A stretch of DNA of 32,000 bases from assembly GCF_000022265.1 (NCBI RefSeq), contig NC_011979.1:1050001-1082000 (forward strand), written 5' to 3'. This document shows, one piece after another, positions 17,318-20,898 of this stretch (within the stretch, counting starts at the first letter, position 1; each line of letters starts with the position of its first letter). Made by a program: the position numbers and the translations under genes. Source of the DNA: Geotalea daltonii FRC-32. GTDB taxonomy: Bacteria; Desulfobacterota; Desulfuromonadia; Geobacterales; Geobacteraceae. The notes below the pieces were generated by a model, which did no database searches, had not been told where the DNA came from, and worked only from the letters and a program-made list of their open reading frames with translations.

Positions 17318-17358
17318 AAATGGGGCATGACGTTAACATCATGCCCCATTTACTTTTC
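17318..17358 (+). terminator. Rho-independent terminator of the CARDB gene
   Basis: aaatggggcatga-cgttaaca-tcatgccccattt: a perfect 13-bp stem followed by acttttcc, 21 nt after the stop. Confidence 0.8.
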
Positions 17359-17375
17359 CTCTATTCGGCGCAACA

Positions 17376-17679
17376 GGTGTATAAGTGGTGTCAGGCTTGG
17401 GTGTATAAGTGGTGTCAGGCTTGCAATTGTGCAAGTTGCTGCGATAGCTGTTGCTTCAGCATAGGCGGAGTACCCTTATTTTCCAATGATTTTTACAGGC
17501 GATTATCTCCAGATATCGTAGCCGATGTTCAGCATCAGGGGTGTATAAGTGGTGTCAGGCTTGCAATTGTGCAAGTTGCTGCGATAGCTGTTGCTTCAGC
17601 ATAGGCGGAGTACCCTTATTTTCCAATGATTTTTACCGGCGATTATCTCCAGATATCGTAGCCGATGTTCAGCATCAGG
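17376..17679. repeat. Tandem duplication: 24-mer A (x3) and 116-bp B (x2), arranged A-A-B-A-B
   Basis: ggtgtataagtggtgtcaggcttg occurs at 17376, 17400 and 17540. The 140-bp units 17400-17539 and 17540-17679 differ at one base (17497 a versus 17637 c). The right end of each unit contains the last ~12 codons plus stop (37 nt) of the 17643-18128 gene. Confidence 0.95.
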
Positions 17680-18128: not shown

Positions 18129-18198
18129 GGACCTCCTCCGCCGTAAGTATAACAGGTCCATGCCCAATGTCAGAGGTTGGGTAATCTACCGAAGAGAA

Positions 18199-18218
18199 AG
18201 GGGGGCCTCTGCCCCCCT
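18199..18218 (-). terminator. GC hairpin downstream of the SnoaL-like gene
   Basis: aggggggc-ctct-gcccccct: a perfect 8-bp G/C stem, 16 nt after the 18234 stop, followed on the minus strand by ttctcttc. Confidence 0.55.
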
Positions 18219-18233
18219 AATCCATTGTGTGGC

Positions 18234-18710
18234 TCATTTGATGACGCCCAGCTGCCTGAAGAGTCCGTAGATGTCCATCACATCCCAGTGTTCGGCAAGT
18301 TTGCCGTCTTGTACCCGAAAGATGTCCACCGCATCGAAACTGTATTTCTGCCCATTTCCCGGAATCCCGAGCCATTCTTTTTCCAGTGTGCCCGAATAGG
18401 TGCCGTATACCCAGACCTCGTCTCCCTCGGCGACAATCTTTTTCAAACTGTAATTCCAATCGGGAACCGCGGCGAACCATGCTGCAAAAAACTCCTTGAA
18501 TCCCGCCGAACCCTGCTTGACCAGCGGGTTATGCTGAATGTAATCGGCACGCACATACCGCTCTACCTCGCTGAGATCCTTCTTGACGAAGACCTCCTCT
18601 GCAAATCTGCCGATAAGTGCCTTGTTCACATCCTTCTCCTTTGCGATCGCTGTTCCACCCATGATGAAAAATAGTCCTGCCACCAACAGGGTTGCCTTGA
18701 TTGCTTTCAT
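18234..18710 (-). CDS. SnoaL/NTF2-like (ester-cyclase-like) exported protein
   Basis: Signal peptide MKAIKATLLVAGLFFIMGGTAIA, then the pattern ...YIQHNP........F..F...PD........I.EGD.V.V..T.SGT....G....G....F...DIFR..DGK..EHWD. Confidence 0.7.
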   Translation of the reverse strand: MKAIKATLLVAGLFFIMGGTAIAKEKDVNKALIGRFAEEVFVKKDLSEVERYVRADYIQHNPLVKQGSAGFKEFFAAWFAAVPDWNYSLKKIVAEGDEVWVYGTYSGTLEKEWLGIPGNGQKYSFDAVDIFRVQDGKLAEHWDVMDIYGLFRQLGVIK

Positions 18711-18777
18711 TTACTGCCTCCTTTGAAAAATAAATTATTCGTCGCTAGCGAGCATGTTGCCAACGATAACAATATAG

Positions 18778-18833
18778 GTTACTATCCGCAAGTAGGCACC
18801 TTTTTGTATTGTAGTTACCTTTTGGTTACTATC
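18778..18833. repeat. Direct repeat GGTTACTATC x2 in the SnoaL/HxlR divergent intergenic region (candidate operator)
   Basis: ggttactatc occurs at 18778-18787 and 18824-18833. The related gtaggcaccttttt / gtagttacctttt lies between them. Any regulatory role is inferred only from position. Confidence 0.3.
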
Positions 18834-18863
18834 GGATCTATCAAGGGGAAAAAGGAGATTTTT

Positions 18864-19226
18864 ATGCGGTGGGATGTGTATAACGAGCGCTGTCCGACCC
18901 GAATGGTCCTGGACCGCATAGCCGACAAGTGGACGGTACTCATTATTGGCTCGCTGGAAAAAGGGACGAGAAGATTCGGCGATCTTCGCCGGGAAGTGGG
19001 GGGGATTTCACAGAAGATGCTGACCCAGACATTGCGGGGGCTTGAACGGGACGGTCTGGTGACCCGTGTCATCTATGCCACTGTCCCCCCCAAAGTCGAA
19101 TATTCATTGACCGATCTCGGGCGGACCCTGGTAAGTGTCTTTGAGGGAATACGGCACTGGTCTGAAAGCAATATCGAGGAAGTTCTCAAGGCGCGGGAAT
19201 TCTACGACAGCCGTGGAGATGCGTGA
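18864..19226 (+). CDS. HxlR-family winged-helix transcriptional regulator
   Basis: CPTRMVLDRIADKWTVLIIGSLEKGTRRFGDLRREVGGISQKMLTQTLRGLERDGLVTR...PPKVEYSLT is the HxlR signature. ATG at 18864 is preceded by AAGGAG. Confidence 0.9.
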   Translation: MRWDVYNERCPTRMVLDRIADKWTVLIIGSLEKGTRRFGDLRREVGGISQKMLTQTLRGLERDGLVTRVIYATVPPKVEYSLTDLGRTLVSVFEGIRHWSESNIEEVLKAREFYDSRGDA

Positions 19227-19271
19227 CGTCAAGGCTTGCAATTGTGGGGAGGGCTAAGGGGTCTGCCCTTG

Positions 19272-20434
19272 GTGCGCCGGTGAAACCGGCGAGAGATAGT
19301 GAGTGAAAGTCTCATACGATGAAGGAGTAGCGAACCGCATCGGCCCCGAGTCATGCGCAGTCGTCCGTGAGGACGGCTGCGAAGCGTTGACAGGGGGGAT
19401 GTGGGCCAGGTATTGAGCCGCGAAAAGACCCTCATCCGGGGTGCCGACGCCATCGAGGGCAGCGGAAGGCAAAACGGGATGTCTCGTAAGCGCGAGAAGC
19501 ATTCCGACCCCGCGTGGTCTTAGACCCTGCGCACGCATGCAAGTCTCCCGCACGGGAACCGGGATATCCTGCGATTGGCCATTACGGATGGCATAATGGT
19601 CCGTGCCGTGAATTCTATGAAGCACGACGGCGATGCACGGTCGCGGGAAGTCGGACAGTTCCATAGTACCGAAGAAGCCCTCGAACAAAGGTTATGGTGC
19701 GCCACGGCCAGCGGAGGGGGTGGAGGGAAGGGGACTGGCCGAAGGGAATGCGTTGTTGCAAAACAGGCACTGAACACAGCGTCAGAAAAGGAATCGGAAT
19801 GGACAGCCGTAATAGGGCACAAAACGGGAAACCGCAGCAACAGCCAACGGCAAGCTCCCATAGCCGCTCCATAGACCTGCAAAGCGCGCGGCAACGCATA
19901 CGGCAGAAAGCCTTGGCAGATAAAGGTTTACGGTTCACAACACTCTGGCATCACGTCTATCACATCGACCACCTCCGGGAATCTTACTACAACTTAAAGC
20001 GGCACGCCGCACCGGGAGTGGACGAACAGACGTGGCAGCAGTACGGGGAGGACCTGGAAGGAAACCTTCAAGACCTCTCCAACCGGCTGCGGCGCGGAGC
20101 GTACCGGGCGAAGCCGGTCAGAAGGACATATGTCCCCAAATTAGATGGCAGCCAGAGACCAATCGGCATTCCCGCACTGGAAGACAAGATCGTCCAGCGC
20201 GCCACCGTAGAAGTCCTGAACTGCATCTACGAGGCCGATTTCAAAGGCTTCTCGTATGCATTTCGACCCAAGCGCAGCCAGCATAATGCGCTGGATGCGC
20301 TTACGGTCGGCATCACCACGAAGAAGGTGAGCTGGGTGCTTGATGCAGACATACGTGGATTTTTCGACGCCATCGACCACGCATGGCTGATGAAGTTCAT
20401 CGAGCACAGAATCGCGGACCAGCGCGTTATCCGT
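19272..20434 (+). mobile_element. Group II intron, 5' fragment (domains I-III region plus the start of the domain IV ORF); 3' half missing
   Basis: GTGCG at 19272 matches the intron 5' consensus. About 530 nt of non-coding, structured-looking sequence precedes the RT ORF. No YADD, maturase or domain V/VI sequence follows. Confidence 0.8.
19799..20434 (+). pseudogene. Group II intron reverse transcriptase/maturase, truncated after RT block 4
   Basis: RPIGIPALEDKIVQRA, FSYAFRPKRSQHNALDAL and WVLDADIRGFFDAIDHAWLMKFIEHRIADQRVIR are RT blocks 2-4. Similarity stops at about 20434 and the frame runs into unrelated sequence. RT5-7 (YADD) and the X domain are absent. Confidence 0.85.
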
Positions 20435-20819
20435 CATAAGGACTCAACCTTATTTCATGGGTGTACAAGTCGCCATGATTTTTCCCGGCACAGCCCTCAC
20501 AATCACGCGGGCCGTTAAAGCTGTAACTGTTCACGCCGCCGTACATAAGATGGATTCGTCGGTCGTGAAATGGTCCGAGTAAAGAGAGGTGGATTTCGAG
20601 CGTTCTGGCTTCGTTTCGATTGCCTTTTCCACTCTCTTTTATGGTGCACGTTTCCAGCCACGCATCATGCAGAGACGTAGGTGACTGGAGATCAAAATAC
20701 TTTGCGTCGGATGCAAATGCATAGACGTGCGCAGGCAGTCTATCTTTGATTGTGAGAAGGTATTCTTGGTACCCATGGAAGTCGATGCTGTCTGAGTCCG
20801 ACTTAAGAATGTGTTCCAT
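20427..20819 (-). CDS. Cassette ORF, hypothetical (polymorphic-toxin immunity-protein-like pattern, tentative); 3' end probably altered at the intron junction
   Basis: 130 aa, with AGGAAA before the ATG at 20819. The ...LHDAWLETCTI... segment resembles Imm-type proteins (weak). The last codon and the TAA stop lie in RT-derived sequence. Confidence 0.55.
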   Translation of the reverse strand: MEHILKSDSDSIDFHGYQEYLLTIKDRLPAHVYAFASDAKYFDLQSPTSLHDAWLETCTIKESGKGNRNEARTLEIHLSLLGPFHDRRIHLMYGGVNSYSFNGPRDCEGCAGKNHGDLYTHEIRLSPYDG

Positions 20820-20832
20820 TTTCTTTTTCCTG

Positions 20833-20897
20833 TGCCAACGGTGTGGGGGCGCAGCGGCGGAGCGTTAGCGGAGACCGCTGCCGCCTACTGGTTGTGC
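20833..20897 (-). other. attC recombination site
   Basis: Minus strand: R'' GCACAAC ... R' GTTGGCA. Internal pairing cagcgg/ccgctg. 65 bp. Confidence 0.8.
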
Positions 20898-20898
20898 C

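Follow-up and report, generated by a model that had tools for sequence, protein, structure and literature searches.

Background

Class C-attC group II introns, among them S.ma.I2 and G.s.I1, are found at integron arrays, antisense to the gene cassettes, and an outward promoter (TTGCCT, 17 nt, TACGCT) has been listed for 'Geobacter sp. CP001390' (Leon and Roy 2010, PMC3001079). Truncated introns of another class are also on record: H.ha.F1 and H.ha.F2 are class E fragments in an attC cluster of Halorhodospira halochloris (Sonbol and Siam 2021, PMC7923331), in which the reverse transcriptase (RT) gene is broken; both are truncated at the 5' end, follow attC-like hairpins, and fit abortive reverse transcription, which begins at the intron 3' end and so leaves 5'-truncated copies (PMC7923331). 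Introns of a further kind occur on Klebsiella IncF and ColE1 plasmids; the copies on 12-kb Klebsiella plasmids are named Kl.pn.I5 or Se.ma.I1 (PMC6764390). Here we compare with these systems a 5' fragment of a group II intron at one end of a chromosomal integron of Geotalea daltonii FRC-32. It lies in a stretch of 32,000 nt (contig NC_011979.1, positions 1,050,001 to 1,082,000), hereafter called the window and numbered from its first base. A sequence-only reading of the window had placed half a group II intron at the far end of a cassette array and had suggested kinship with the attC-targeting introns.

The half intron and the adjoining integron

The features on which the analysis rests are the following (window positions unless stated otherwise):

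18723-19226, + strand: hxlR-family regulator gene (Pfam HxlR, E 4e-30), the last gene on the non-array side
19227-19271, + strand: 5' exon flank, of which the last six bases, CCCTTG (19266-19271), are IBS1
19272-20437, + strand: 5' part of a group II intron, 1,166 nt from a full length of ~1.9 kb
19272-19798, + strand: intron ribozyme, domains I-III and the start of domain IV (RF02005 match)
19454-19459, + strand: EBS1, CGAGGG (column pairing with the exon end across introns)
19799-20437, + strand: fragment of the intron-encoded protein, 213 codons, RT0-RT3, ending ...ADQRVIRH (TIGR04416 and relatives)
20437-20439, no strand: putative deletion junction, at which the intron RT gene and the last cassette ORF, both broken internally, are joined (homology ends on both sides)
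20427-20819, - strand: last cassette ORF, truncated, with 126 genuine codons followed by Tyr-Asp-Gly-stop
20833-20898, - strand: most distal surviving attC (profile match 20835-20897, E 3.6e-07)
32503-34403 in window-equivalent numbering (L004:2503-4403, genome 1082503-1084403), + strand: intact class C-attC group II intron (RT and ribozyme matches)
Genome 1089100-1090050, + strand: integron integrase (TIGR02249, 355.7 bits), divergent from the cassettes

The array is real: 17 attC profile matches lie between co-oriented minus-strand ORFs from 20427 onward, and every cassette has its own attC except the last (ORF 20427-20819). The integrase gene is situated beyond the window, ~19 kb from the half intron and on the opposite side of the array, so that placement of the half intron at the distal end was correct. 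Among 40 other genomes of the family that were sampled, 24 contain a matching integrase, which in 20 of them is 77-88% identical (the remainder being weaker or partial matches); the integron is a chromosomal one that occurs throughout the lineage. A simple regular-expression search for attCs was dropped because most of its matches were false, and the RNAalifold consensus of the array attC alignment was too poor to justify a covariance model.

The half intron begins with GTGCG at 19272, where it aligns with the starts of 56 related introns, and carries 527 nt of ribozyme before the ATG of the RT frame at 19799. Rfam RF02005 (group-II-D1D4-6) matches over its whole model at 19306-19527 with 191.2 bits (gathering score 49, E 1.9e-56). 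The RT fragment matches positions 3-171 of the 353 of TIGR04416 at 185 bits, where the cut-off is 300, its N-terminal half being clearly of group II type, and positions 1-99 of the 205 of Pfam RVT_1. Several points of the sequence-only reading are thus borne out: the GTGCG end, the ~530 nt of ribozyme-like sequence, and the assignment to group II introns, the RT being that of neither a retron nor a DGR. Two others need adjustment. The RT is present, extending from RT0 to RT3 and breaking just before the RT4 core, in place of the proposed blocks 2-4; and the element does stop abruptly, at 20437 instead of 20434. The AT-richer array does set in at the same point, with GC content falling from 0.56-0.58 to 0.50 and then to 0.32-0.47 past the break.

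As had been claimed, the window has neither a YADD motif nor a maturase domain, and domain V/VI is likewise missing, with no RF00029 match anywhere in the window. Since, in addition, the 3' ends of the relatives find no match in the genome, the half intron is a fragment and not a functional group II intron member; the remnant is unable to splice, reverse-transcribe or move. The genome contains two group II RT genes only, that of the half intron, which is single-copy, and one complete copy. A search for an intact copy elsewhere in the genome therefore found none, the other RT gene belonging to a different lineage, class C-attC.

Lineage of the half intron

Three lines of evidence separate the half intron from class C: in a maximum-likelihood RT tree it falls into a clade with RF02005-matching introns (support 100/99), the class C copies forming a separate clade; identity between its RT fragment and the RT of the class C intron in this array is 34%; and its ribozyme is of a different family. 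The suggested kinship with the attC-targeting class C introns is therefore abandoned, as RT tree, pairwise identity and ribozyme family all place the half intron elsewhere. Solved RT structures do not discriminate the class of the fragment, which scores ~86-95 bits against class C chains (86 against the GsI-IIC RT and 95 against the best chain, 5hhl), 82 against LtrA and 71 against a third group II RT chain, 6me0.

The best relatives, up to 69% identical in RT, come from Acidobacteriota and other metagenome-assembled genomes (MAGs), and the RT of an intron on a Klebsiella IncF plasmid, with an RF02005 score of 184.5 bits, is 53% identical to the fragment. The likeness to the Kl.pn.I5/Se.ma.I1-like introns of Klebsiella IncF and ColE1 plasmids and to other RF02005-type introns thus extends from the ribozyme family (191 versus 184.5 bits) to the RT (51-53% identity for the Klebsiella copies, up to 69% for the Acidobacteriota MAG copies), the same GTGCGCCGG start, and an EBS1 at the same position. 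It differs from them in consisting of the 5' 1,166 nt only, in having CGAGGG as EBS1 where most relatives have an AGGAG-type sequence, and in having no close copy within its genome or its genus, where the best match is 36% identical. Another member of the genus with a closed genome of 5.1 Mb (G003) has two group II intron families of nine copies each, with frames of 540 and 469 aa, whose identity to the half intron is only 31-36%.

In two intact relatives (L108 and L010) the terminal loop of domain V, a domain deleted in the half intron itself, consists of five bases, which is a hallmark of IIE/IIF ribozymes (PMC3753933). We designate the element 'RF02005 lineage, IIE/IIF-like domain V', on the basis of its ribozyme family and of the domain V loop of its relatives; neither the pSymA introns nor the literature on Kl.pn.I5 yields a class label for the lineage. 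The protein of one full-length relative (L005) has ~450 residues and is without an endonuclease domain.

The related introns are not located in attCs. Most introns of the lineage are antisense to, and immediately upstream of, the ribosome-binding sites of host genes: in 37 of 56 copies (L005-L083, L108) the exon end includes CTCC, TCCT or CCTC, paired to an AGGAG-type EBS1, and 33 of these 37 have CAT 8-20 nt upstream, which in 29 of the 33 opens a minus-strand ORF of at least 60 codons. No description of this antisense habit of the lineage was found in the literature searched.

The insertion site

The half intron has the sense of hxlR and starts 45 nt past the end of that gene. For the identification of EBS1, the first 540 nt of 57 introns were aligned and every column was scored for pairing with each intron's own last six exon bases; one column stands out, with 95.6% of its cells paired across the 57 introns, the next best reaching 70%. 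In the half intron the corresponding CGAGGG forms six of six pairs, one of them G-U, with the exon end CCCTTG. This pairing indicates that the intron reverse-spliced exactly at this site, and the 5' junction at 19271/19272 is an authentic insertion site. For EBS2-IBS2 no alignment column exceeded 0.60 at exon positions -14 to -7, and EBS1 alone is claimed.

The 5' flank had been judged not to look like an attC, and two further analyses agree. Profile HMMs of the 5' half, the 3' half and the full length, built from 16 array attCs, recover an attC outside the training set that is split by the class C intron (E 5e-06), and give no match at 19200-19280 even at E<=100. Folding of the flank as RNA is no better than that of shuffled sequence (z +0.83), and as DNA it reaches -5 kcal/mol, as against -13.8 to -18 kcal/mol for the array attCs and -15.7 kcal/mol for the 5' exon of the intact class C intron.

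A 14-mer in the flank, GGCTTGCAATTGTG, has nine dispersed copies in the genome, at window positions 17418, 17558 and 19233 and at six other sites. The copies usually follow GGTG(C/T)CA and short tandem repeats; the resulting TGGTGC-N5-TTGCA resembles a sigma-54 -24/-12 promoter, of which the copy in the flank is without the -24 part.

The half intron thus inserted into ordinary intergenic DNA by its own EBS1-IBS1 pairing, in the sense of hxlR. It does lie antisense to the cassettes, as had been noted (intron on the + strand, cassettes on the - strand), but given such an insertion this orientation is uninformative, the intron having also the sense of hxlR, and does not discriminate in favour of a class C-attC intron.

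An intact class C-attC intron in the same array

An intact class C-attC intron lies 503 to 2,403 bases past the end of the window, ~12 kb deeper in the array than the half intron. Its RT matches the solved GsI-IIC RT at 453.5 bits, and its ribozyme matches RF02001, RF01998 and RF00029. It splits an attC just before the R'' box: the 5' exon is an attC bottom strand ending ...GCCGCTGGT, and the 3' exon, TAGGC, completes the R'' box and provides the stop codon of the next cassette ORF. The antisense of its bases 74-102 reads TTGCCT, 17 nt, TACGCT. This match to the promoter entry of PMC3001079 identifies it as an already published class C-attC intron.

The half intron resembles this intron, S.ma.I2 and G.s.I1 in its place at an integron array, its antisense orientation to the cassettes, and its position adjoining the stop codon of a cassette ORF. 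It differs from them in belonging to another RT clade, in its ribozyme (RF02005, versus RF02001 and RF01998 in the intact class C intron), and in its 5' exon, which is not an attC bottom strand, the target having been set by a 6-bp EBS1-IBS1 pairing without a stem-loop.

The 3' junction and the truncated last cassette

At the other end of the half intron, two truncated genes meet. Intron homology stops at 20437 and cassette homology starts with the Pro codon at 20439-20441, leaving at most 1 nt ambiguous. The related introns continue after RVIRH with (L/I/V)KKWL.AG and the RT4 core, in place of which the half intron reads KDSTLFHG.... On the opposite strand, the last cassette ORF closes with Tyr-Asp-Gly and a stop that are read in antisense from the RVIRH codons of the intron. 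Homologues of the cassette protein, ~156-176 aa in length, run on past ...HEIRLSP. Eight aligned ones of 159-176 aa, and the closest one of full length (P0121), continue ...SP(G/D)GLLIHELLFERG...; P0121, with 158 aa and an aligned identity of 88% to the window ORF, reads ...SPGGLLIHELLFERGTFLIEFKEFQHSEELVAA. Comparison with full-length homologues shows that the last cassette has lost 31 codons, its stop and its attC; relatives of ~1.92 kb put the loss from the intron at ~0.75 kb. The rearrangement breakpoint proposed earlier is thereby confirmed, with truncation on both sides of the junction, in the intron RT gene as well as in the last cassette ORF. P0121 comes from a JGI metagenome contig of 2,188 nt, and the protein family to which it belongs has more than 200 members of ~160 aa, without a Pfam domain.

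Searches by tblastn and blastn found neither the missing C-terminal half of the RT, nor domains V/VI, nor the missing C-terminus of the cassette protein elsewhere in the 4.3 Mb genome, which accords with loss of these pieces and not with their displacement by inversion or translocation. Judged from the sequences that meet there, the 3' end of the half intron is probably a deletion scar. A microhomology at the junction was considered, because the Asp-Gly past the break looked cassette-derived; P0121 has Gly-Gly at this place and the resemblance is a coincidence. With an overlap of at most 1 nt, the junction does not point to any particular deletion mechanism. The ribozyme of the half intron scores as high against RF02005 (191 bits) as those of intact relatives (158-185 bits), which suggests little decay since the event, which would then not be ancient.

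This damage is of the opposite polarity to that of H.ha.F1 and H.ha.F2, with which the half intron shares the condition of a non-class-C group II intron fragment with a broken RT gene in or at a cassette array. Those fragments are truncated at the 5' end and follow attC-like hairpins, whereas the half intron has lost its 3' end, is preceded by a flank that is not an attC and forms no hairpin, and lies at an integron that has kept its integrase. Because failed reverse transcription truncates 5' ends, a 3' truncation combined with a perfect 5' junction indicates that the half intron was damaged after its insertion. For the cassette the consequence is that, its terminal attC having been lost, it is beyond excision by the integrase.

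The locus in related genomes

The closest relative, a genome of the same genus (G002, ~90-95% identical), lacks an integron here: at a stretch of 19-20 nt its sequence goes straight from the equivalent of window position 17377 to that of position 40074 (window-equivalent). A 19-20-nt imperfect direct repeat, ...TC(G/T)GCGCAACAGG, is present here at window 17358-17377 and at L004:10080-10099 (window-equivalent 40080-40099). It is the 3' end of a merA-like gene. Between the two copies lies a 22.7-kb segment with the gene for an outer-membrane protein, snoaL-hxlR, the half intron, the complete array and, ~25 nt from one repeat, intI. In G002 the segment is missing and the repeat occurs once, so that the integron as a whole resembles an insertion/deletion polymorphism.

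The hxlR gene itself is present in G002 in a different neighbourhood. Identity there is 90% up to window position 19227, one base past the hxlR stop, and the sequences are unrelated beyond it. The snoaL-hxlR stretch (window 18159-19227, L094:6364-7429 in G002, 90% identical) lies on the other side of a CARDB protein gene in G002, and is followed by a 3.4-kb stretch specific to that genome which includes a 364-aa ORF. The snoaL-hxlR interval is a rearrangement hot spot. An undeleted allele was not found in the related genomes, G002 having no integron at the locus and hxlR elsewhere, and the array of a further genome (G005) running off its contig; G003, which was also checked, gave no attC matches with the profile built from the attCs of this array.

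Proposed history of the locus and its alternatives

We consider it probable that an intron of the RF02005 lineage inserted 3' of hxlR and was later cut when a deletion took away part of it together with the end of the last cassette. A mobile intron would have reverse-spliced at a point 45 nt beyond hxlR, in the orientation of that gene, guided by EBS1 to CCCTTG. A later illegitimate deletion would then have had one end point within the RT gene, immediately ahead of RT4, and the other within the final cassette ORF of the neighbouring integron, removing ~0.75 kb of the intron (RT4-7 with the YADD motif, the maturase domain, and domains V and VI) together with the terminal attC, the last 31 cassette codons and any DNA in between. 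We infer the order of events, the mechanism of the deletion and the amount of DNA between the break points; the half intron most likely came to lie beside the array by accident.

Homing of the intron into the terminal attC, such that its position and antisense orientation would reflect attC targeting by a non-class-C intron, appears improbable. The geometry is that of the intact class C-attC intron (attC body, intron 5' to 3', stop codon of a minus-strand cassette), the flank has ACGTC..CAAGGC in common with some array attCs when compared by eye, and class IIB and class E introns adjoining attC-like structures have been described (PMC7923331). Against this, the profiles that recover every array attC as well as the untrained split one find nothing at 19200-19280 at E<=100; the flank is without the invariant AAC and folds at -5 kcal/mol, versus -13.8 to -18 kcal/mol for attCs; part of it is the dispersed 14-mer, which is unrelated to attCs; and the relatives of the half intron are not in attCs. 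Equally improbable is a join made in one step during retrotransposition, by which, after full reverse splicing at 19271/19272, cDNA synthesis would have been primed inside the intron RNA by a DNA end of the array, only the 5' half being copied and the intervening DNA being deleted. Introns with an endonuclease-lacking protein depend on DNA ends at replication forks as primers (PMC7923331), the endonuclease domain is absent from the relative's protein examined (L005), and a perfect 5' junction is set against an abrupt 3' join. Yet the junction has no microhomology at which a primer could anneal, the literature searched holds no precedent, and the outcome would be indistinguishable from that of a later deletion. 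Only marginally easier to entertain, and still unlikely, is the wider proposal that insertion and loss of the array end were one coupled event, with reverse transcription aberrantly primed from an array DNA end, and that the lineage may favour integron ends, an affinity at which the truncated class E fragments in the Halorhodospira attC cluster hint.

Two further explanations concern the 3' junction itself. The junction could be an assembly artefact joining two unrelated reads, repeats such as introns and attC arrays being classic places for misjoins; we regard this as very improbable, for the genome is one closed contig of 4,304,501 bp, 100% complete, the intron is single-copy and so offers no repeat for a misjoin, and the exact chimeric product of 130 aa is on record from NCBI, JGI, ENA and a Logan read assembly. 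Least credible of all is recombination by the integron integrase between a cassette and the RT gene at a secondary site with the core-like sequence GTTATCC (20426-20432). The GTTAT of this site fits the loose consensus of integrase secondary sites, and on the minus strand GGATAAC mimics the stop-containing R'' boxes of other cassettes. A crossover at G/TT of the attC R' box would, however, keep the whole attC, and here the attC and 31 codons are gone; moreover, the bases to the right of GTT still encode the conserved I-R-H of the intron and agree with the relatives at every base up to 20437, which puts the crossover 8-10 nt off. Integrase recombination is contradicted by these observations, and could be revived only if the full-length cassette gene itself carried GTTATCCGTCAT.

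Conclusions

The half intron, as the remnant of an insertion downstream of hxlR that was probably cut by a later deletion, is a real but ordinary scar of genome rearrangement, left by a known kind of retroelement that is now dead; broken group II introns are common, and taken alone it is of little consequence. If insertion and deletion were, against expectation, one coupled event, the deletion by which the terminal attC was lost and the last cassette immobilised would have been the work of a retroelement. The antisense ribosome-binding-site habit of the intron lineage may merit a study of its own. The locus also counsels caution: an intron antisense to cassettes is not in itself evidence for attC targeting, since this integron does possess a class C-attC intron, and that is a separate element, 12 kb away and published before (PMC3001079). 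For the integron, the locus shows how the distal end of a sedentary chromosomal array was sealed, the last cassette being left with neither an attC nor its own stop codon and so beyond the reach of the integrase.
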